A stretch of 64,000 nucleotides of DNA from Microcystaceae cyanobacterium. GTDB taxonomy: Bacteria > Cyanobacteriota > Cyanobacteriia > Cyanobacteriales > Microcystaceae. Position 1 is the first letter of the stretch; every line of letters begins with the position of its first letter. The stretch lies in assembly GCA_041746575.1 (NCBI GenBank), contig JBGTGT010000101.1, forward strand, positions 43,859-107,858, read 5' to 3'. Made by a program: the position numbers and the translations under genes. Positions 27,839-58,594 of this stretch are shown here, piece by piece. Below the pieces are notes generated by a model, which saw nothing but the letters and a program-made list of their open reading frames with translations, searched no databases and had not been told where the DNA came from.

Positions 27839-28794
27839 TTATTCTGCAAAATAGTCTGTATCTATTTTCTTAATCTCATAAAATTTGACGGGAGAAACAC
27901 CCACATTATAATCAATCAAAAATTCACCCAATACATTGCCATCAATGAGAATAATTTTACTGTCTATCATAGAAATGAGAATAATTTTACTGTCTATCAT
28001 AGATGCGTATTCAACCGCTTCTTTACTGTATTGTGAGGTTGTAATAAAAATTCCTTTTTTTGCTTGTTGTCCTAACAAAGCACCTGCAAACTTTTGTATT
28101 TCTGGTCTTCCCACTTTTCCATCCCATCGTTTAGCTTGAATATAGATAATATCTAATCCTAGTCTATCTTCTTTGATAATACCATCAATACCCCCATCAT
28201 TTGATTTACCAATCGCTTGACCCGCTTCTTTTCTTGAACCACCATAACCCATCTTAATTAAAAGATCAATAACTAATCTTTCAAAAAAGTCAGGTGAACA
28301 TTTTTTAAGAATGTCTAATAACTCATCTTTTAAGTCATTTTTGATTTTCTGAAAAGCCTGTTCTAATTGTTCTTCAGGGGTTTTAGAACCATTTATGATG
28401 CTATGATCTTGAAAATTAGAATCACTCTCATCTTTTTGCTTTTTATTTGTTCTAAAATCCCTAAACTCCTCATATTGACCGAGAAAATCAACATTAATAT
28501 CTTGAGGTAATTTACTTAAAACTTGTAATCCCCTATCTGTTATTTTAGAATATCCTCTTCTTGTTTTTTCTAATAAACCAGCTTTTTTAAGATAAGTAAT
28601 AGCCCAATAGCCCATCCTACTCTATTATCAAAAGTAGGTTGTTGTCCACTGGGTAATAGTTGCCGTCTTTCTTCATCAGTTAAAGTAAAACTATCTGCTA
28701 AATACTCAATGGTTTTTCTTAATGAATGTTCTTGGTTATCCCCTATATATTTTAAAAGAGGAAGCATAATAGTTTGAAAATCTGGAATCGTCAT
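27839..28794 (-). pseudogene. mrr: Mrr type IV restriction endonuclease, frameshifted
   Basis: MTIPDFQTIMLPLL...FDNRVGWA N-domain and DGGIDG/IQAKRW catalytic domain lie in different frames; 8-bp duplication at 28599-28614, 30-bp duplication at 27944-28003. Confidence 0.9.
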
Positions 28795-47939: not shown

Positions 47940-48182
47940 GGTTAGTCGAATTCCTCTGACAGAACAATAATCACTGGAGAAAGAGGGTATCAAAAAAATG
48001 CTAAAAATAAAGATAAATAGTTGCTTTTTGGGCAGTTATCATCAATTAATATTTTGCTAAAAGGGATTCATTTACCTCTAATAATAGCAAGGAAACCCAG
48101 ACAGAATTTCTAAAGAAAATGCGTAATTTAGTCTGGAGCAATCCTTGATAACGAGCTTGCCGACCCTTTTTGTAATCTATAT

Positions 48183-48788
48183 TTAATTCGTCGTGTTTCG
48201 AGAACGTTCAACCCTAAAAAGTAGTTGTAAAGCGATAATAATTCCCACTAATCCGGCGGCAATGACATTGAGCGTCGCTTGGATGGCAATTAGACTCGAC
48301 GGGGTAACTAATGCGCCGGGTACAGCTAAGGTTGTCCCGATCTGATTAGGGGCAATTACTGTCGCCCCTTGGGGTAAAGTTAATAACTTGAAGGTCAATT
48401 CACCCACGCGGATGAGGGCAATTAACACAGAAATAGCCATTACCCCAATATTGGTAAACAGCCCTAACTTGAGGTCTCGAACCATTGTAGCGTAAGTGAG
48501 ACGAGAATTTTGACGCTTCAGCCGTCTGGCCAACTTTGTGTAACGAAAACACCAATAAATACTGAAAATGAGCATTATTAAACAGGTAAGGGCTAATCCT
48601 AACCCGACTGATAATCTACCCGCCGCTGGTTGCCCCCATTTTGCTAGGGCATAAATAATCACCACAAGGATGGGAATTAACCCTAAAAGGGTTTGCACAA
48701 AAAAACCAATCCATCCTAAGCGTAAAAAAGCAGGGGAGAGATGTTGAGACGTTGAGGCATTGACTTGAGACTTGGGAGAATTAGACAT
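48183..48788 (-). CDS. DUF3611 (Tic21-like) membrane protein
   Basis: RLGWIGFFVQ.LLG, FSIYWCFRY. Confidence 0.8.
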   Translation of the reverse strand: MSNSPKSQVNASTSQHLSPAFLRLGWIGFFVQTLLGLIPILVVIIYALAKWGQPAAGRLSVGLGLALTCLIMLIFSIYWCFRYTKLARRLKRQNSRLTYATMVRDLKLGLFTNIGVMAISVLIALIRVGELTFKLLTLPQGATVIAPNQIGTTLAVPGALVTPSSLIAIQATLNVIAAGLVGIIIALQLLFRVERSRNTTN

Positions 48789-48872
48789 ATATAAAATAGG
48801 GGAAGAGAAAAGGGAAGCAAAAGCGAATGATTAGCTGAATTCAGTTTTCTGTTGAACTCATTATAATGAGCA

Positions 48873-49367
48873 ATGAGATTATCAGAAAAATTTTTGATTC
48901 ATGAACTTATTTCAATCAATAAAGTAAAAATGACGATTTTATGGACATTATTCTTCTTCACAGCTCAAGCTAATCTTTCAGATCCGGATTTTCAGCGATT
49001 AGCCGAACACTTGGCACAATTAAACATCCCTTTGAAATGGGAGAAACCCCCCGGAACGGGGAATTATGGTGCCTTTGAACCCAAAAGTCAAACGATTTGG
49101 TTAGATCCTATTATTATTGACTTAGGAATTGCAAAACCAACCTTAATTCATGAATCAGTTCACGTTGCTCAAGAATGCAAAGGAAAGGGTAAACTGATAC
49201 CCTTAAACTTGGATCTAGAAACGCCTGCCCTCACCCGACGCTATTTTATGCGTTATAGTGGCGATCGCCGTGATTTAGAGCGGGAAGCCTATACCGTTCA
49301 AGCCCAATCGAATAGTACGGAGATTGCGATCGCTTTATTAGAAAAGTATTGTCAAAATATTCGTTAA
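48873..49367 (+). CDS. small zincin-like (HExxH) protein; start possibly 48930
   Basis: TLIHESVHVAQEC...EREAY. Confidence 0.75.
   Translation: MRLSEKFLIHELISINKVKMTILWTLFFFTAQANLSDPDFQRLAEHLAQLNIPLKWEKPPGTGNYGAFEPKSQTIWLDPIIIDLGIAKPTLIHESVHVAQECKGKGKLIPLNLDLETPALTRRYFMRYSGDRRDLEREAYTVQAQSNSTEIAIALLEKYCQNIR
49294..49357 (+). repeat. left 64-bp direct repeat (3' end of the zincin gene, contains HIP1)
   Basis: 56/64 ungapped identity with 54874-54937; identical 26-mer GGAGATTGCGATCGCTTTATTAGAAA. Confidence 0.93.
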
Positions 49368-49386
49368 GTCTTCAATAATCCTATTG

Positions 49387-50094
49387 CTAAGGACTGTTGG
49401 AATTCCCTGTTTTCCTCTCTAGTTCCCGAATTTTCATTTCTAATACCCTATTTTCGGTTCTCAATTTATTGGCTTGTTCCCGATAATAATTAGCTTGTTG
49501 GAGCGTTAACTTTCTTTGAGCATCTTCGTTCGCCAAATGGGATTGATGAGCCGCTTCACATCTGGCTCTTAAGCCTCCATCTACCGGAATCGATACAGAG
49601 AATAAAGCACCAAATTCTTGAGCATAGCCCGATGCACCTCTAGTATAGCTAGCCGAGTGAATAGTGGTTCCGGGGCAAGAGATGCCTCCCCCCAAACCAA
49701 ATTGAGATAGGGGAGGTGCGTAAATAACAGGGGCATTTGTCCCTAACGCTCTAGGAGAACTGCTGCCTTGACTGGAAGAATTTGAGCGATTGTTCGGCTC
49801 ATCCAAGTTAAATACTCGGTTATCTTGGATAACTCTGCCATCATAATTTTGATCAGAAGCGTTGATGTCTCGATTATCGATAACTGTATCGTTGTCGTAA
49901 ATTATGCGGTCTCCGTCAATCGTAAAATTATTAATGCCGATATCGTTTTCATTGTTGCTTAAGTTCAAATTGTCATTGGTTGTTGTGTTCCGAACCCCAA
50001 TATCAGAATCAACACTGCTAGAAACCTGTGCTTTGGCGGGTATGGGTAGCGAAAGTAACAGAACGATTACTAAAAAACGATAATAGTGGCTCAT
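49387..50094 (-). CDS. secreted Asn/Asp-rich protein with Cys-pair beta-hairpin and C-terminal coiled coil
   Basis: Signal PAKA|Q; N/D-rich stretch; GGGISCPGT...FGALFSVSIPVDGGLRARCEAA; heptad tail. Confidence 0.8.
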   Translation of the reverse strand: MSHYYRFLVIVLLLSLPIPAKAQVSSSVDSDIGVRNTTTNDNLNLSNNENDIGINNFTIDGDRIIYDNDTVIDNRDINASDQNYDGRVIQDNRVFNLDEPNNRSNSSSQGSSSPRALGTNAPVIYAPPLSQFGLGGGISCPGTTIHSASYTRGASGYAQEFGALFSVSIPVDGGLRARCEAAHQSHLANEDAQRKLTLQQANYYREQANKLRTENRVLEMKIRELERKTGNSNSP

Positions 50095-50391
50095 GACTCA
50101 TGGTATTGGAATTTGCCAAAAGTAAAAAATAAAGGGAAAGGACTTTAAAAAGTCAGTTCCTTCCCCTTCCTCAGGATTTGATCAGGGACTTACTTAAGCA
50201 AGGTGTTAACTGTTTTGCTAACTTCAATCGGTTAAGTTCCTAACCTGATCCTGTCAGTTGTCGTTTAATCCCGTTTTTCAAAAATATCGAGAGCATTATC
50301 CTAATCCCCAGCCTCTCTCCCATAAGGCGAGGGAGTCAGATGTGTCTCAGGTATTCAGAAAATTGAGATAGGACGGAAAGAAACAACTTAA

Positions 50392-51954
50392 TTAGTTACT
50401 TTGATCGCCACCACCAACATCTAAATTGCCATCGCCAGATTCTGCACCAAAGTCGATTTGAATTAGGTTCGTGTTGTCGCTGGTGTTGGTATTTTCATTG
50501 GTGATGTTATTAACGTTATCAATAACTGAGTCAATGGTGCTGGTGATGTTTGAAGTCACTTCACCCATGATGTCATTTTCAAGGGTATTAGCTAACTCAG
50601 ACGGTGAACCGATGCCTTCACCAAAGTCAATATTGCCCGTCGTTGCCGCCACATCAGATTCAATGTCGCTCATTAACTCATTTGCGCCTTCAATGGCTGA
50701 ATCTACCGCCGCCTGAGCATCGTTAGCACTATCTAAGGCAGAATCCACTGTACTATCCAATGCGCTTTCAATGGCACTATCTAAATCAGACATTCCCCCT
50801 TCTAAGGCGGCATCTAAAGCATTATCGATTGCAGAATCGACGGCTCCGTCCACCTCACTGGTGACATCAGATCCTTCAAGGCCACCAATGTCAACAGCAC
50901 CACCTTGAGCGTCTGCCGTTGAAGGACCACTTTGAGCGTCTGCTGTTGAGGGACCACTTTGAGCATCTGCTGTTCCACCTGCACCCCCTTCACTGGTGGT
51001 CGTAGAATCCAAAGGGCCGGTTTGAGCGTCTGCTGTTGAAGGACCACTTTGAGCGTCTGCTGTCCCACCTGCACTGGTTGAATCAGAGTTTGAGGCATTT
51101 TCCCCGTCAATCGAGCCTTCAATGTCAGACTCTAACTCAGACAGCGCATCAGAGATCGAATCACCAGAGGCAGAATCACCAGAGGTCGCATTGCCGCCTT
51201 CACCTGTTCCCGTTCCTGCAGAGGTAGAAGATCCCCCATTAGCGGCCGAATCGGACTCAGAAGGACCATTCGTAGCTGATGAGTCGCCGCCATCCGAAGT
51301 AGAAGATCCCCCATTAGCAGCCGAATCACCAGAGGTGGCATTTGAGGGACCGGAGGACGCATCACCAGAGGTGGCAACGCCGCCTTCACCTGTTCCGGTA
51401 GAAGACCCACCATTGGCCGTTGAATCGGACTCAGAAGGACCACTGGTAGCCGTTGAATCACCACTGTCAGAAGTGGCATCACCACTATCAGAGGTGGCAA
51501 CGCCGCCTTCACCTGTTCCGGTAGAAGACCCACCATTGGCTGTTGAATCAGACTCAGAAGGCCCATTAGTGGCCGTTGAATCACCACTATCAGAGGTGGC
51601 AGTACCGCCTTCACCTGTTCCGGTAGAAGACCCACCGTTGGCTGTTGAATCGGAAGTGGAATCTCCTGCTGTGTTGGTAGCGGCAGAATCTCCATCCGAA
51701 GTGGAATCTCCTGCTGTATTGGTAGCGGCAGAATCTCCATCCGAAGTGGAATCAGCCGTATTGTCAGCCGTTGCATCTGAAGTTGCGTCAGCGTTTGAAT
51801 CAGAAGTAACTTCTACATCCTCTACAGCTGAAGTTGCGGGGTCTTGAGGGAAAACTTGAGCGAGGCTACGTAATAAGAAGGCATCAAAACCAATTCCTCC
51901 CACGGCGGCGAGGACAGCAGTCAAGGCTAACGATTTAATTTTTTTCATTTTCAT
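50392..51954 (-). CDS. secreted hyper-acidic S/G/D/T/A repeat protein
   Basis: Basic N-terminus plus hydrophobic core and SLA|Q cleavage site; internal 9-, 15- and ~34-aa repeats with synonymous variation. Confidence 0.85.
   Translation of the reverse strand: MKMKKIKSLALTAVLAAVGGIGFDAFLLRSLAQVFPQDPATSAVEDVEVTSDSNADATSDATADNTADSTSDGDSAATNTAGDSTSDGDSAATNTAGDSTSDSTANGGSSTGTGEGGTATSDSGDSTATNGPSESDSTANGGSSTGTGEGGVATSDSGDATSDSGDSTATSGPSESDSTANGGSSTGTGEGGVATSGDASSGPSNATSGDSAANGGSSTSDGGDSSATNGPSESDSAANGGSSTSAGTGTGEGGNATSGDSASGDSISDALSELESDIEGSIDGENASNSDSTSAGGTADAQSGPSTADAQTGPLDSTTTSEGGAGGTADAQSGPSTADAQSGPSTADAQGGAVDIGGLEGSDVTSEVDGAVDSAIDNALDAALEGGMSDLDSAIESALDSTVDSALDSANDAQAAVDSAIEGANELMSDIESDVAATTGNIDFGEGIGSPSELANTLENDIMGEVTSNITSTIDSVIDNVNNITNENTNTSDNTNLIQIDFGAESGDGNLDVGGGDQSN
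50900..51760 (-). repeat. coding tandem repeats: 27-nt (STADAQSGP), ~102-nt (DSTANGGSSTGTGEGG...), 45-nt (GDSTSDGDSAATNTA)
   Basis: TADAQ x5, DS[TA]ANGGSST x5, DSTSDGDSAATNTAG x2. Confidence 0.9.
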
Positions 51955-52753
51955 TATCTTAGTCAGAACTCAACTTTATTTATAGGAGAACGAGCGCAAC
52001 GAATTTACCCTTTTAATTGACGGCTTCAATCATTAATTTGAGATTAAGCGATCAATAATAATGGCTTTACTCCGTTTTTCTCTGCGTACTCCTAAATTAA
52101 TTTTTAATGCGAAAAATTTTTTTGTCAATACGAACAAAATTAGTTTTTTCAGCACATGATTTGTTTTTAACGACTTATATTTTGTCGATTTTAAACAATG
52201 ATATTTAAGAACGGAAAATGTTTTTTTTGATAACTTGTGTTTTCAATAATCCTTTTTCGTGATTTTCAGAAACCGCGATCGCTCAAACATCCTTTGGGAA
52301 AACCATTTGAGAGATTAGACTCAGATTTTGGTTGCTTCATGGGAAATAGTTAAGCGATTTCCAAAGCTTATTCACTTCACCATTTTACGGAATCACTTTA
52401 TCGTTCCGCTACAGAGATATCGGCAAAAGCATAAATTTTACGCATTTACGATTCAGAGAAAGGCGCAGGGAATTTTATAATTTAGGGAAGGCGACAAAAG
52501 TAGGCAAAGGAGATGTCGCGGGCAGATAAAACAACGGGTAGCACTCTTTACAGTCTTTCAATTTTTTGAGAAAAAATATAAAGCTTTATTTCAATCATAA
52601 GTGGTACAGACGACAACTCATATTGTCGGTCATACTATATAGTAACAACTGCTTATCGAAATATACTTGCTCCGTTATTCCGGAAAACGACAAATTGCAT
52701 CTGTAAATATCGGTAATTGACGGTCTATACTTTAGTATGAGAGGAATGCAATC

Positions 52754-53719
52754 ATGAAAGACGCTGCATCATTTCGGTCTTATCTAGACTCCCTCAATCT
52801 TCAACAACAAAAACAGATTCAACAGATTACCCTAAAAATTAAAAATCGATTGCGTCGTTGCGCTCAAGATATTGTGGAAATTGGCAATGATTTATGCCAA
52901 ATAAAAAAACATTTAAAGCATGGTGAGTTTCGTCAGTGGTTGAAAGTGGAATTTGATTGGAGTGTGTCGACTGCTAATAAATTTATGCAAGTCAGTCAAC
53001 GATTTACGACAAAAGACTTAGTTGATGTCGAAATTGCTCCCTCCGCTCTTTATCTTTTATCAGCCTCTTCGCTTCCAGATACGGTTCGTCAAAATGCGCT
53101 TGAACAAGCGAAACAAGGTAAGCCTATTAGTTTTTCCTTTGCTCAACAATTGATCAATACTCATAAAACCCAAACCTCCGAGGTTTCTATCGAAGAGGAA
53201 GTCAGCCGTCAAGCACATCAGGAACACAACGATGTTGTCTCGTCCGCCTTGCCCGATCAGTGTTCATCTAACATTAATGTCTATCCTTTTGCTAATTTTA
53301 GTATTTGTCTGCAACGGGAATGGCAGCGCATGGCGCGCGAACAAAAAGATTTATCGGTGATCATTGCTCAAATTGATGATACCTCTTTGTTACTTTCTGC
53401 TGAAATACTTGAAATAATGACCAACAAAATGGCGAGTTTGTTGCATCGTCCTGCTGATTTTATTGTTTACGATAGGAATAACCGATGGTTCATTATTCTA
53501 CCAAATACCTCGGCGGAAGGAGCGCATTGGGTGAGGCGTCGTTTTTTAGAATGGTTCTCTGTTTGGCAAAACCAAAATAATTCCTTTCATAATTTAGAAA
53601 TGCCCAAACTTAGTTTAGGGAATGCAACCGTCGTTCCCCAACCGAATTCTGATGCTAAGTCTTTAATTGAACAAGCGCAACGGGCTTTAAAGCAAGAACA
53701 CTACACTAAAATAGACTAG
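52754..53719 (+). CDS. DUF3102 domain fused to a degenerate GGDEF domain
   Basis: IVEIG..L...K..L.HGEF.QWL..EF.WS..TA.KFM; then QREWQRMAREQ..LS...HRPADFIVYDRNNRWFIILPNT..EGA. Confidence 0.85.
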   Translation: MKDAASFRSYLDSLNLQQQKQIQQITLKIKNRLRRCAQDIVEIGNDLCQIKKHLKHGEFRQWLKVEFDWSVSTANKFMQVSQRFTTKDLVDVEIAPSALYLLSASSLPDTVRQNALEQAKQGKPISFSFAQQLINTHKTQTSEVSIEEEVSRQAHQEHNDVVSSALPDQCSSNINVYPFANFSICLQREWQRMAREQKDLSVIIAQIDDTSLLLSAEILEIMTNKMASLLHRPADFIVYDRNNRWFIILPNTSAEGAHWVRRRFLEWFSVWQNQNNSFHNLEMPKLSLGNATVVPQPNSDAKSLIEQAQRALKQEHYTKID

Positions 53720-54096
53720 ATTCTTTTTTCATCAGTTTGAAAGTAAAAGTCAAAATATGATTAATTAATAATTTGACGTTTGGTAATAGGAGCGAGAAAC
53801 GACTCCTAATCGGTCGTAAGGACTAAATCGTCTCTATTATTTTAGTTATTTTTGGACATTTCTATAGCAATAGATTAAGTTAAAAAAAATTAATCTAGAA
53901 AAATGGTAAATTTATATACAAAAACAGAAAAAAATTATATACTTATTCTTGAAAATTTTAATTATAAAACACCGTCTAAATTATCTTTATTTATTTAGAC
54001 AAAAAACTGACTGAATTTTAGCCGTTATATTATTCCTGTTTGCTGATTGTTTCTCTACGAATTATTTGCTCTTCTTTACATTACCTCTTTTTTGAG

Positions 54097-54855
54097 ATGT
54101 CATATATGGCTGTCAATTCCACCGCTCCGTTAGAACTCCCAATGTTCGCCAAGCCGATTAATCGTTTATTGAACACTCTATCCGAACATGAATATGAACG
54201 GCTGTTGTCCTATCTCACCCCCGTCTATCTCAAAGCGGGTAAAACGATTTGGCAACCGTTTGAACCTATTACAATGGTTTATTTTCCGAATAACGCCCTC
54301 ATTTCTCTCGTATCCCACCTAGAAAATGGTGTCACCACGGAAATTGCCCTTATTGGCTATGAAGGTGTCGTCGGACTTCCTGTTATTCTAGGAACTCAAT
54401 ATTGTCCTTATGAAGCGATTGTTCAGATTGAAGGTGTAGCCTTAAGATTAGATGCCAAAATTTTCAAAGAAGAATTTAAACGGGAAGGGAGCTTGTTTCA
54501 CCGACTTTTAGCCTATAGTCAAGCTCGTTTGACTCAGTCGGCTCAAACCTCCGTCTGTAACCGTCAGCATACCATTGAAGCTCGTCTAGCTCGTTGGTTG
54601 TTATCTGTGCGGGATTGCACCCTTTGTAATGAGTTGCCAGTGACTCAAGAATTGATTGCCAATATGTTAGGTGTCCGTCGCTCTGGTGTGACTGTTGCTC
54701 TCGGAAAATTGCAGAAACTCGACATTATTCGCTGTTATCGGGGAAAAATTGTGATCATTGATGCAGTGAAGCTGACAAATGTTTCCTGTGAATGTTATGC
54801 TCTAATTAAAGATGAATTTGCTCGTTTACTTAAACTTGCCAATGCTTTTAACTAG
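54097..54855 (+). CDS. Crp/Fnr family transcriptional regulator
   Basis: NRLL..L, IGYEGVVG, CNRQHTIEARLARWLL, TQE.IANMLGVRRSGVT HTH, CECY. Confidence 0.93.
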   Translation: MSYMAVNSTAPLELPMFAKPINRLLNTLSEHEYERLLSYLTPVYLKAGKTIWQPFEPITMVYFPNNALISLVSHLENGVTTEIALIGYEGVVGLPVILGTQYCPYEAIVQIEGVALRLDAKIFKEEFKREGSLFHRLLAYSQARLTQSAQTSVCNRQHTIEARLARWLLSVRDCTLCNELPVTQELIANMLGVRRSGVTVALGKLQKLDIIRCYRGKIVIIDAVKLTNVSCECYALIKDEFARLLKLANAFN

Positions 54856-54873
54856 TTGCTCTAAGGAATAACG

Positions 54874-54937
54874 CCATTCAAGTACAATTGAATAGGAGGG
54901 AGATTGCGATCGCTTTATTAGAAAGATATTGTCAAAA
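54874..54937 (+). repeat. right direct repeat; orphan C-terminus of the zincin gene (open to 54971)
   Basis: Encodes ...EIAIALLERYCQKKRLAKHLLTK* versus EIAIALLEKYCQNIR* in the left copy. Confidence 0.93.
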
Positions 54938-55002
54938 GAAGCGTTTGGCAAAACATCTCCTAACAAAATAAAAAGGGAACTTAGAACTCGAATTATTAGA
55001 AA

Positions 55003-55767
55003 ATGATCTGTGTTTTTTTTCATCGTTTAACAACTCGTTTTCTATTTTTTCTTAGTCTTATTTTTTGCCTCATCATTGGACAGATAACCGTATTTTCTCA
55101 AACAACTAACCTTCCTTTACCGAATCCTCAAATTCATCCACTGCCGGCTTTCCTTGAACAATGGCAAGATTCAACGGATTCAGGGGATTACTTTGATTAT
55201 ATCGAAGTTTCACCAATGGGGTATTTAATTTGGTCAACTTTGCCAATTACCATTTATGTAGAAACCCCCCTTAATCTTGATGAAAATTCTGCCAGCGATC
55301 GCCGTTTTCAACAATGGTTTAACGCGGTTTTAACAGCGATTCAAGAATGGAATATTTACTTACCTTTGGTAAGGATTACCAGTCCTGAAAAAGCCGATAT
55401 TAAAATCTTAAGAGAAAATCCGCCTTTAGGTTCAACCCGAGATCCCGAAACAGGACAACTGCTCATTCCTCGCGCTCGTTCGGCTCAAACAACCTATCAA
55501 TTTAAAGTCAAAGATGATAGACTGATTCATCAAATGACCTTACAAATTAGTCCCAGATTGAGTGAAATTTCTACTTTATCAGCGACTCGTCATGAGCTAG
55601 GTCATGCGTTGGGTATTTGGGGTCATAGTCCTTTTGAAAACGATGCTCTTTACTTTTCTCAAGTTCCTGTTTCACCTTCAATTTCTCTGAGGGATGTTAA
55701 TACCTTAAAAAGAATTTATCAACAACCGACGCGCTTAGGTTGGACAATTCTTCAACTCTCTTATTAA
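55003..55767 (+). CDS. matrixin-like (M10) metallopeptidase
   Basis: HELGHALGIWGHS; ISLRDVNTL..IY. Confidence 0.88.
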   Translation: MICVFFHRLTTRFLFFLSLIFCLIIGQITVFSQTTNLPLPNPQIHPLPAFLEQWQDSTDSGDYFDYIEVSPMGYLIWSTLPITIYVETPLNLDENSASDRRFQQWFNAVLTAIQEWNIYLPLVRITSPEKADIKILRENPPLGSTRDPETGQLLIPRARSAQTTYQFKVKDDRLIHQMTLQISPRLSEISTLSATRHELGHALGIWGHSPFENDALYFSQVPVSPSISLRDVNTLKRIYQQPTRLGWTILQLSY

Positions 55768-55897
55768 ATCTCGCTAAAACTTTAATAAATAGGCTGATTT
55801 TCAGTCTTTAAATTTTAGTCAAAAATAAATATTTACGCTTTTTACAAATGATTGATATAATTGAGAAAACTGATTTAAATAATTAGAGATTTAACCG

Positions 55898-58594
55898 ATG
55901 TCTTTTGTAGGTTTACATATTCATAGTGATTATAGTCTTTTAGATGGCGCATCCCAATTACCTTCCCTGGTTGAGCGGGCGGTTGAGTTAGGAATGCCAG
56001 CGATCGCTTTAACAGATCACGGGGTAATGTATGGCGCAATTGAACTGATTAAAGTCTGCCGGGATAAAGGCATTAAACCGATTATTGGCAATGAGATGTA
56101 TGTCATTAATGGTGATATTGAAGAGAAAAAAAAATATCGTCGCTATCATCAAGTTGTTTTAGCAAAAAATACGCAAGGGTATAAAAATCTCGTTAAGTTA
56201 ACCACCGTTTCTCACCTAAAAGGAATACAGGGAAAAGGAATTTTTGCTCGTCCTTGCATTAATAAAGACCTCTTAAAATACTACCACGAAGGTTTAATTG
56301 TGACCAGTGCTTGTTTAGGAGGAGAAATTCCCCAAGCCATTTTAGCCAATGATCTCAACCGAGCCGAAGAAGTCGCTAAATGGTATCAAGCTATTTTTGG
56401 AGATGACTATTACTTAGAAATTCAAGATCACGGTTCCCCTGAAGATAGAATGGTCAATGTTGCGATCGTTAATATCGCTAAAGCATTGGGCATTAAAATC
56501 ATAGCGACCAATGATTCTCATTTTATATCTTGTTATGATGTAGAAGCTCATGATGCCCTTTTATGTATTCAAACAGGGAAATTAATTACCGAAGATAAAC
56601 GTCTCAGATATAGCGGCACTGAATATCTTAAATCGGCAGAAGAAATGCGTTTGCTCTTTCGAGATCACTTACCCAATGACATCATCGAAGAAGCGATTAA
56701 CAATACCCTAGAAGTGTCCGAAAAAGTCGAAATTTATAAGATATTAGGAGAGCCTCGTATTCCGAATTACCCCGTTCCTCCCGGTCACACTTCTGATAGT
56801 TATGTTGAAGAAATCGCTTGGAAGGGGTTAATGGAACGCCTAAAATGTAAATCCCACAGCGAACTTGAACCGCACTATAAAGAACGATTAGAATACGAAC
56901 TTAAAATGTTACAAAAGATGGGTTTCTCAACCTATTTTCTGGTTGTGTGGGATTATATTAAATATGCCAGAGATCATCATATTCCAGTTGGCCCCGGACG
57001 AGGTTCGGCGGCGGGATCTTTAGTAGCTTATGCCATGAAAATTACCAATATTGATCCGGTACATCACGGCTTATTGTTTGAGCGATTTCTCAATCCTGAA
57101 CGAAAATCGATGCCCGATATTGATACCGATTTTTGTATTGAAAGACGAGATGAAATGATTCGATATGTCACCGAAAAATACGGGGAAACCAATGTTGCCC
57201 AAATTATTACTTTTAACCGCCTGACTTCTAAAGCGGTGCTTAAAGATGTAGCCAGAGTGTTAAATATTCCCTATTCGGATTCCGATAGAATGGCGAAATT
57301 AATTCCTGTTTTGCGGGGGAAACCGACTAAATTAAAAGTCATGATTTCTGACAAAACCCCAGAACCTGAATTTAAAAAAGCGTATGATCATCAAGACGTT
57401 GACATTAAAGATGACAAGGGCAATGTGAGTGGACAAATTCCTGTTCGTAGTTGGATAGATATGGCCATTCGTATTGAAGGGACGAATAAAACCTTTGGCG
57501 TTCATGCGGCAGGTGTGGTCATTTCTTCCGAACCGTTAGATGAAATTGTTCCTTTACAAAAGAATAATGATGGTGCAGTAATTACCCAATATTTTATGGA
57601 AGATTTAGAGTCGTTAGGTTTATTGAAAATGGACTTTTTAGGCTTAAAAAACTTAACGACTTTAGAAAGAGCCGTAGAACTGATTCAGCAAAATCAAGGG
57701 ATTCAACTGGATTTAGACCAGCTTCCTTTAGACGAACGAAAAGCCTTACAAATTATTGAAAAAGGAAACCTTAAAAAATTACCTCCCGATATTGAGAAAA
57801 CCCATAAATTACTAGAAGCAGGAGATTTAGAAGGGATTTTCCAACTTGAATCATCGGGAATGAAACAAATTGTCAAAGACTTAAAACCTTCAGGGATCGA
57901 AGATATTTCTTCTATTTTAGCCCTCTATCGTCCGGGGCCTTTAGATGCGGGACTAATTCCTAAATTTATTGATCGTAAACATGGTCGAGAACCGATTCAA
58001 TATGAACATAAGTTACTCGAACCCATTCTTAAAGAAACCTATGCTGTGCTCGTTTATCAAGAACAAATTATGAAAATGGCGCAAGATTTGGCAGGATATT
58101 CTTTAGGAGAAGCGGATTTATTGCGTCGTGCGATGGGTAAGAAAAAAGCCTCAGAAATGGCAAAACATCGTGAAATTTTTATTGATGGTTCGACCCGAAA
58201 TGGGGTACCGCCGAGAATTGCAGAAAATTTATTTGAGCAGATGGTCAAATTTGCTGAATATTGTCTCAGTTATGAAACTGAAATTTTAACAATAGAATAT
58301 GGCTTTTTAGCGATCGGTCAAATTGTAGAAGCGGAGATTGAATGTCAGGTTTATACCATAGATAAGAATGGGTTTATTTATACCCAACCCATTGTGCAAT
58401 GGCACGATAGAGGAGAAAGGGAAATTTATCAATATACCCTAGAAGGGGGTTCAGTGATTCAGTCCACGAAAGATCATCAGTTTATGACGATAACAGGGGA
58501 AATGTTCCCCATTGATCAGATTTTTCAACAAGGATTGGAACTTAAGCAAATTCCGGTCAGTATGCCAGAAAAGATTGAACCTTGTTGGGTTTAA
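55898..58594 (+). CDS. dnaE: DNA polymerase III alpha N-terminal half with split-intein N fragment
   Basis: PHP domain [23 protein letters not shown]; ends [12 protein letters not shown]... Confidence 0.97.
58262..58591 (+). other. DnaE split intein, N fragment (110 aa)
   Basis: Cys1 [18 protein letters not shown]; block B TKDH. Confidence 0.95.

Follow-up and report, generated by a model that had tools for sequence, protein, structure and literature searches.

Genomic islands and islets that integrate into the 3′ ends of tRNA or protein-coding genes are bounded by a repeat (attL and attR) made of the 3′ end of the target gene. An intact gene with a partial copy of its own end beyond a compact accessory block is the usual scar of insertion into a gene end. 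Among signalling proteins, degenerate GGDEF receptors such as PelD and PopA bind cyclic di-guanosine monophosphate (c-di-GMP) via the I-site. Features of both are combined in a four-gene cassette of a hot-spring Microcystaceae cyanobacterium, represented by a metagenome-assembled genome (MAG) of 4.2 Mb (assembly GCA_041746575.1). The window analysed here is a stretch of 64,000 nucleotides (nt) of this genome, contig JBGTGT010000101.1, positions 43,859-107,858 of the forward strand. Between the two copies of a direct repeat it holds exactly four open reading frames (ORFs): two on the minus strand, encoding the secreted-type proteins sec235 and sec520 of 235 and 520 amino acids, and two on the plus strand, encoding a DUF3102-degenerate-GGDEF protein of 321 amino acids and a Crp/Fnr-family regulator of 271 (Table 1). 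A preliminary description of this DNA had proposed a self-contained surface-fibre system. The evidence presented below suggests that the cassette is probably a lineage-specific genomic islet of mixed origin, inserted into the 3′ end of a zincin-like gene, and not a conserved system.

The direct repeat and the zincin-like gene

The copies of the repeat are 72 nt long, 85% identical and spaced 5580 nt from start to start; the preliminary description had given 64 bp at the same spacing, with the same core. Comparison with the whole genome by blastn returns only the mutual match of the two copies (53 nt at 90.6%, expectation value (E) 1e-11), all remaining matches being 20 nt or shorter, and the copies therefore represent a unique pair and no dispersed repeat family. 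On the left the homology runs up to the stop codon of the zincin-like gene, and on the right it starts 18 nt past the Crp stop codon. The gap between the stop codons of the zincin-like gene and sec235 amounts to 19 nt.

Homologues of the zincin-like protein were found in 16 of 40 relatives surveyed, at 41-50% identity and with one match per genome. The protein has no Pfam or NCBIfam match, and matches PHROG 16003 (function unknown) with E 7e-7. Comparison with the C-termini of the 16 homologues reveals a family pattern, …EAYTVQ(T/V)QPN..EL..SLL.K(H/Y)C…, which fits both copies of the repeat. In the register of copy 1, the frame of copy 2 is open from 54858 to a stop at 54969-54971; it reads AIQVQLNRREIAIALLERYCQKKRLAKHLLTK and retains residues of the zincin family, such as QVQ, NR and YCxKK. 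Family-typical residues lost in one copy are partly kept by the other, in both directions. The peptide EIAIALLE is common to both copies, and all 16 relatives have ELxxSLL instead. The copies are thus each other's closest relatives, which places the duplication inside this lineage, unless very closely related lineages exchanged the sequence. Between the copies 11 nucleotides differ, distributed over eight codons, and as read from the alignment all eight codons have changed their amino acid; neutral drift of at least one copy, without selection, would have this effect. The longest identical run between the copies, 26 nt, contains the HIP1 octamer GCGATCGC, which codes for Ala-Ile-Ala of the common peptide. 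Since HIP1 reaches a density of 0.42 per kb genome-wide, with one site strictly within the cassette, its presence in the repeat is most simply explained as that of a passenger of the duplicated coding sequence.

This layout probably arose in a single step. The zincin-like gene would have stood directly upstream of a metzincin-like gene before ~5.5 kb (49366-54873) entered its 3′ end, with a duplication of its last ~24 codons. The upstream copy would now complete this HExxH peptidase-like gene, and the downstream copy would be a relic drifting without selection. A circular molecule with a copy of the gene end would produce precisely such a layout by single-crossover (Campbell-type) or site-specific integration. 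The four genes carried in would each have a history of their own and together form a mosaic. With no recombinase gene remaining nearby, the islet is probably fixed now and no longer mobile. The earlier idea of an inserted unit survives in this form, as a genuine duplication bounds the four genes and fits one insertion event.

The cassette was followed in Logan contigs (k=31) of the metagenome runs X1, X3, X4 and X5. Independent contigs of X1 and X3 span both junctions with 100% identity and equal depth, and X4 covers the cassette in pieces, again with 100% identity; none of these three runs contains a contig skipping the cassette or a circular form of it. The same contigs bear on the prospect of an assembly artefact, in which halves of the cassette were misjoined within the tandem repeats of sec520 and the bracketing repeats never stood on one molecule. 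Contigs of X1 and X3 do break in sec520, at 51253-51366 and 51518-51724. Contigs built with k=31 are, however, expected to break at exact repeats, and the depth is equal on both sides (29.4 vs 26.4 in X1, 33.8 vs 34.3 in X3). The stretch 51366-51518 is covered by short contigs, and an X4 contig covers 50931-51409 with 100% identity. The 520-amino-acid frame is continuous, and its third-position guanine+cytosine (GC) content of 0.36, like that of the other genes of the genome, supports the reading frame. A misjoin is, in our estimate, very improbable.

Run X5 comes from a different study and matches, of the 10.5 kb compared, only the 703-nt stretch 48567-49269, with 100% identity and a depth of 10-24. 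This stretch takes in the 5′ part of a DUF3611 gene, the following intergenic region and the greater part of the zincin-like gene. The last contig stops 25 nt short of repeat copy 1; its end could correspond to a boundary of recombination or to a variant locus.

A number of points weigh against this account. No relative examined showed the empty site, in which the zincin tail would directly precede the metzincin gene, since the order of genes is scrambled in all of them; the insertion is therefore read from the scar itself. In the loci around the 16 zincin homologues, another tested gene of the window appears only twice, as a DUF3611 paralogue (28%, locus L020) and as a match limited to the GGDEF domain (L025), and a metzincin or DnaE gene is present in none of the 16. 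Likewise, the 24 surrounding genes of the window are all missing within ~8 kb of the four metzincin homologues examined. Closer relatives were sought with P0002 (one of the close relatives of sec235) and the metzincin protein in metagenome contigs and with the sec235 alignment in genome contigs, and nothing was found. Pfam families of integrases, recombinases and transposases are absent from all 48 window ORFs scanned (those of at least 90 amino acids, less one repeating an already scanned protein). In tetranucleotide distance the cassette ranks at the 86th percentile among 400 random genome segments (75th without sec520), and its GC content is 41.6% against 40.3% for the genome; such an unremarkable composition provides no independent sign of foreign origin. 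Co-occurrence is unable to test orphan genes, whose lack of relatives is silent on control by neighbouring regulators, and divergent regulator-target pairs are common. Finally, decay of a second zincin paralogue would produce just such a relic as well.

The last of these points amounts to an explanation of its own, in which no insertion took place: a second zincin paralogue, tandem or nearby, stood upstream of the metzincin gene and lost its 5′ part by deletion or rearrangement, copy 2 is its remnant, and the four genes merely lie between paralogues. This would agree with the native composition, with the mobility genes not found in the window and with the highly fluid gene order of the group, and each repeat copy keeps family residues lost by the other, so both diverged from a common ancestor. 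The homology nevertheless stops within ~20 nt of the end of the Crp gene on one side and at the stop codon of the zincin-like gene on the other, and a clean duplication of this kind, limited to the gene end, is the product of integration into a gene end. Moreover, two zincin copies were seen in none of the 16 relatives in the stretches examined. We regard a decayed paralogue as unlikely, and insertion into the zincin-like gene as the probable origin of the cassette.

Histories of the four genes

The gene content given in the preliminary description holds. The ORF list confirms four genes enclosed by the repeats in the orientations claimed, and the divergent intergenic region, put at about 800 bp, measures 799 nt. 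Pfam matches above the gathering scores and an alignment to WspR bear out the DUF3102-degenerate-GGDEF and Crp/Fnr genes. The two low-complexity proteins of secreted type have signal-peptide-like N-termini as judged by eye, and both are biased in composition. Relatives of sec235 and Crp were sought in 88 other genomes of the taxonomic family, and those of the DUF3102-GGDEF protein in 250 other genomes of the order and in a set of 185,579 species.

The DUF3102-GGDEF protein matches DUF3102 (PF11300) with 43.3 bits against a gathering score of 24.4 (E 5e-11) and GGDEF (PF00990) with 29.1 bits against 23.8 (E 1e-6). Its GGDEF domain aligns to WspR chains (E 7e-4). The catalytic motif is degenerate, with RNNRW (241-245) in the A-site in place of GGEEF of WspR, and the I-site RPAD (232-235) is aligned to RPSD of WspR at the canonical spacing, five residues upstream of the A-site. 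All seven DUF3102-GGDEF orthologues keep RxxD and all seven have lost GG(D/E)EF, which makes a c-di-GMP receptor plausible. Judging by its sequence and by analogy with known receptors, the protein most likely senses c-di-GMP via the retained RxxD, without synthesis. The c-di-GMP effector of the preliminary description is thus upheld in its receptor hallmarks; its membership of a recurring system is not, as the genes are unlinked in relatives. The only match to a defence family, that of the GGDEF region to the AbiK model (PADLOC, E 2e-4), is weak and was discarded as a palm-domain resemblance.

On its own, the DUF3102 domain is widespread among cyanobacteria, often in several copies, and matches five PHROG families without assigned function (E 1e-14 to 4e-9). 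Proteins with DUF3102 only share ~125 amino acids at 35-50% identity and have varied C-terminal parts, with up to five copies per genome (loci L108-L146; genomes G099, G243, G221, G237 and G075). They include records titled Deinococcus and Chloroflexi-type MAGs, and they match phage PHROGs. These features point to a mobile-element-associated domain. The portion of the literature on 'DUF3102' that was accessible contained nothing on the function of the domain. Full-length DUF3102-GGDEF orthologues are much rarer: two of the 250 genomes of the order, G005 and G022, carry them, and among 44 DUF3102 loci drawn from the 185,579 species they occur in five, of which four bear the title Crocosphaera and the fifth belongs to an unclassified cyanobacterial MAG. 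A relative of Crp, sec235 or sec520 lies within ~8 kb in none of the 44 loci, and none was found near the G005 gene or in the stretch examined around the G022 gene.

In G005 (locus L059, 7820-10551) and G022 (L060, 7830-10582), the DUF3102-GGDEF gene overlaps a fusion gene of the RluA pseudouridine-synthase type (557-558 amino acids) by 4 nt, an arrangement that suggests translational coupling of the two. This pairing is absent from four of the five other full-length orthologue loci. The RluA-type fusion gene of the window genome is located on contig C129, without a DUF3102-GGDEF gene upstream.

The Crp protein matches PF00027 with 30.2 bits (cut-off 27.5) and PF13545 with 52.2 bits (cut-off 27), and does not reach the equivalog cut-offs of NtcA or FnrL. 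Homologues align from residues 33-41 of the ORF, so the true start is likely the ATG at 54097 or 54106. Homologues of 43-58% identity are present in 27 of the 88 other genomes of the family. Ten of their loci were examined; sec235, sec520 and DUF3102-GGDEF relatives are absent from all ten, and a second Crp is present in six. In the four loci in which the ORF order was read, Crp is followed by a gene for ~120-170 amino acids and then by the second Crp. The window genome itself has a Crp paralogue of 50-55% identity (contig C122, 12985-14258), which is interrupted, being split into two frames with a stop, and adjoins a conserved gene for 122 amino acids; relatives have the cluster of Crp, small protein and Crp intact. 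The cassette Crp may compensate for this broken gene. A second cassette at the C122 paralogue was considered and rejected, its neighbours being unrelated.

The N-terminus of sec235, MSHYYRFLVIVLLLSLPIPAKAQ, is signal-peptide-like by eye. Only two close relatives, of 67% and 58% identity, were found among 5.77 billion proteins. A profile run against 1.84 billion representatives retrieved three sequences and contributed two marginal hits. The widened profile collects 58 small proteins with common conserved cysteines and no Pfam domain. The wider family is present in three of the 88 other genomes of the taxonomic family, the narrow profile in one. On this sequence evidence, sec235 belongs, as a divergent member, to a rare and unnamed family of cyanobacterial proteins of secreted type without a Pfam entry. 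Members of the family (P0004-P0058) have 150-300 amino acids and bear signal peptides, and the 58 clusters are all annotated as 'hypothetical'. Their motifs begin with one resembling NP[IV]ATS.GSV.NQAVQINQGG, followed by G..C, FS.PLDGG and further conserved cysteines. An acidic repeat protein adjoins the gene in none of three loci with distant members.

The C-terminal domain of sec235 is predicted to consist of four strands and a 57-residue helix, with a predicted local distance difference test score (pLDDT) of 70-91; residues 19-119, the N/D-rich part, have a predicted pLDDT below 50. The mean pLDDT is 47 with three sequences and 59.8 with 35. A wide fold search returned only the long helix, matched to unrelated coiled coils with Z up to 6.6. 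Foldseek found nothing in PDB at E up to 0.001 and a profile search of PDB gave no match, so that these structure and profile searches recognised no known fold. A protein-atlas look-up gave unnamed clusters only.

Serine makes up 18% of sec520, glycine 15%, alanine 14%, aspartate 12% and threonine 11.5%, and the isoelectric point is 4.05; aspartate and glutamate together make up 17.5%, lysine and arginine 1%, and aromatic residues 1%. Its tandem units measure 123 nt and 27 nt, and its C-terminal part is D-S-A-[IL]-rich. No homologue of this less repetitive part was detected, and the best score in the protein-atlas look-up was 0.76. Neither sec520 nor sec235 has a family in Pfam (E up to 0.01) or NCBIfam (E up to 0.1). 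The composition of sec520 is that of acidic disordered secreted proteins and unlike that of known amyloid subunits. The protein is an orphan, a very acidic repeat protein that is probably disordered and secreted.

Table 1. Coordinates of the cassette, its repeats and its flanking genes in the window
Feature	Position	Strand	Description
Zincin-like HExxH gene, 164 amino acids (target with duplicated 3′ end)	48873..49367	+	ORF, HESVH motif
Repeat copy 1	49294..49365	+	Last 24 codons of zincin-like gene, ending …VQAQSNSTEIAIALLEKYCQNIR*
sec235, 235 amino acids	49387..50094	-	Signal-peptide-like N-terminus, N/D-rich middle, C-terminal domain with conserved Cys
sec520, 520-amino-acid orphan	50392..51954	-	Signal-peptide-like N-terminus, acidic S/G/A/D/T-rich tandem repeats
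Divergent intergenic region, 799 nt	51955..52753	.	Between sec520 and DUF3102-GGDEF gene
DUF3102-degenerate-GGDEF gene	52754..53719	+	DUF3102 ~13-145, GGDEF ~181-315
Crp/Fnr-family regulator	54040..54855	+	cNMP_binding + HTH_Crp_2
Repeat copy 2	54874..54945	+	Probable non-coding relic of zincin gene tail, …AIQVQLNRREIAIALLERYCQKKRLAKHLLTK*
Metzincin-like peptidase, right flank	55003..55767	+	HELGHALGIWGH; Pfam Peptidase_M10 match below gathering score

Beyond the metzincin-like gene, the N-terminal part of DNA polymerase III alpha lies at 55898-58594 of the window. The C-terminal end of this DnaE part we take, from its translation only, to be the N-half of the cyanobacterial split DnaE intein. 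A gene for an Mrr-type restriction endonuclease (Mrr_cat, E 4e-34) at 27839-28615, ~21 kb upstream of the cassette, adjoins a DUF6883 gene.

Regulation, secretion and the surface-fibre reading

The 799-nt region between the two pairs of genes contains no RNA family, conserved element or convincing operator that could be found. An Rfam search of 48000-56500 with E up to 1 gave no match. Promoter predictions (14 vs 13.5 expected) and terminator predictions (3 vs 5.5 expected) are at or below chance, and no convincing palindromic operator was found in the three intergenic regions searched. Small ORFs within the region are unremarkable. The DNA upstream of the DUF3102-GGDEF gene is unconserved with respect to G005 and G022, the best match being 17 nt long with E 3e-4.

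The preliminary description had united the four genes in a self-contained transferable module, in which a c-di-GMP effector and a Crp protein control a two-protein surface fibre or matrix, composed of a major repeat subunit and its partner and moving as a unit between the repeats. Several features speak for such a module: the four genes lie exactly between direct repeats, two of them have signal-peptide-like N-termini, the regulators are divergent to the secreted genes across the 799 nt, and the GGDEF protein resembles a c-di-GMP receptor. The only close relatives of sec235, P0002 and P0003, moreover, both report a longest contig of 3463 nt and may be neighbours. On the other hand, the co-occurrence of the four genes, named beforehand as the test, did not materialise, and the genes are unlinked in all loci where homologues exist (0 of 44 for DUF3102, 0 of 10 for Crp and 0 of 3 for distant sec235 relatives). 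Nor does anything point to fibres or to an amyloid subunit with a partner. No curlin, Fap, TasA or secretion-channel family was detected by Pfam or NCBIfam, and the strong acidity and scarce aromatic residues of sec520 set it apart from known amyloid subunits. The transferable character of the module fares no better, as mobility genes were not found in the 64-kb window and no cassette-free or circular form was seen in the three runs that hold the locus. The repeat copies are also 15% different, so that any movement was not recent.

The module as described is thus improbable, and the broader notion of a recurring or mobile surface-fibre system appears very unlikely. Control of sec235 and sec520 by the neighbouring regulators is unlikely, though less so than either. 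The most far-reaching version combines an integrase-less 5.6-kb circle, recombining at HIP1-centred gene-end repeats, with a DUF3102-GGDEF and Crp switch for acidic-matrix proteins; the switch would include a new kind of c-di-GMP-responsive regulator, and the two orphan secreted proteins would build an extracellular matrix. We give this joint proposal hardly any credence.

Significance and comparison with known systems

If the cassette is an inserted islet, as seems probable, it would be an ordinary case of a cyanobacterial genome gaining a small accessory islet, and its value would lie in an insertion scar that is both clean and datable, in a group with otherwise scrambled gene order. The DUF3102-GGDEF architecture and the sec235 family may be worth more than the cassette itself. 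DUF3102 combined with a receptor-type GGDEF domain is found outside this genome only in Crocosphaera-titled records and one unclassified cyanobacterial MAG, and the fusion could give the uncharacterised, phage-associated DUF3102 a first functional handle. A by-product of the analysis is the unnamed family, without a Pfam entry, of small cysteine-containing cyanobacterial proteins of secreted type that includes sec235.

The likeness of the cassette to the curli, Fap and TasA amyloid systems is one of outline, with two biased proteins of secreted type standing beside regulators. The cassette differs in having no family match to these systems and no dedicated outer-membrane channel or nucleator gene among its four genes. 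Its larger protein, sec520, is predicted to be of low complexity, with 17.5% acidic and 1% aromatic residues, and the sec235/sec520 pair is unconserved. The cassette Crp is 43-58% identical to the proteins of the cluster in which two Crp genes enclose a gene for ~120-170 amino acids, and differs in having neither the small gene nor a second Crp beside it. The DUF3102-GGDEF protein shares with receptors of the PelD and PopA type the GGDEF fold, the loss of the catalytic motif and the RxxD kept five residues upstream of it in seven of seven orthologues. Its N-terminal partner, however, is DUF3102 and not a receiver or membrane domain.

Set against integrative islands and islets in the 3′ ends of genes, the cassette differs in having no integrase or excisionase in the insert or in the 64-kb window, no compositional anomaly and repeat copies of only 85% identity, and in that neither an empty site nor a circular form was seen. 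It shares with them the repeat made of the end of the target gene, with an upstream copy that completes the gene and a downstream copy that appears as a partial relic, the tight borders, and a lineage-specific accessory cargo.

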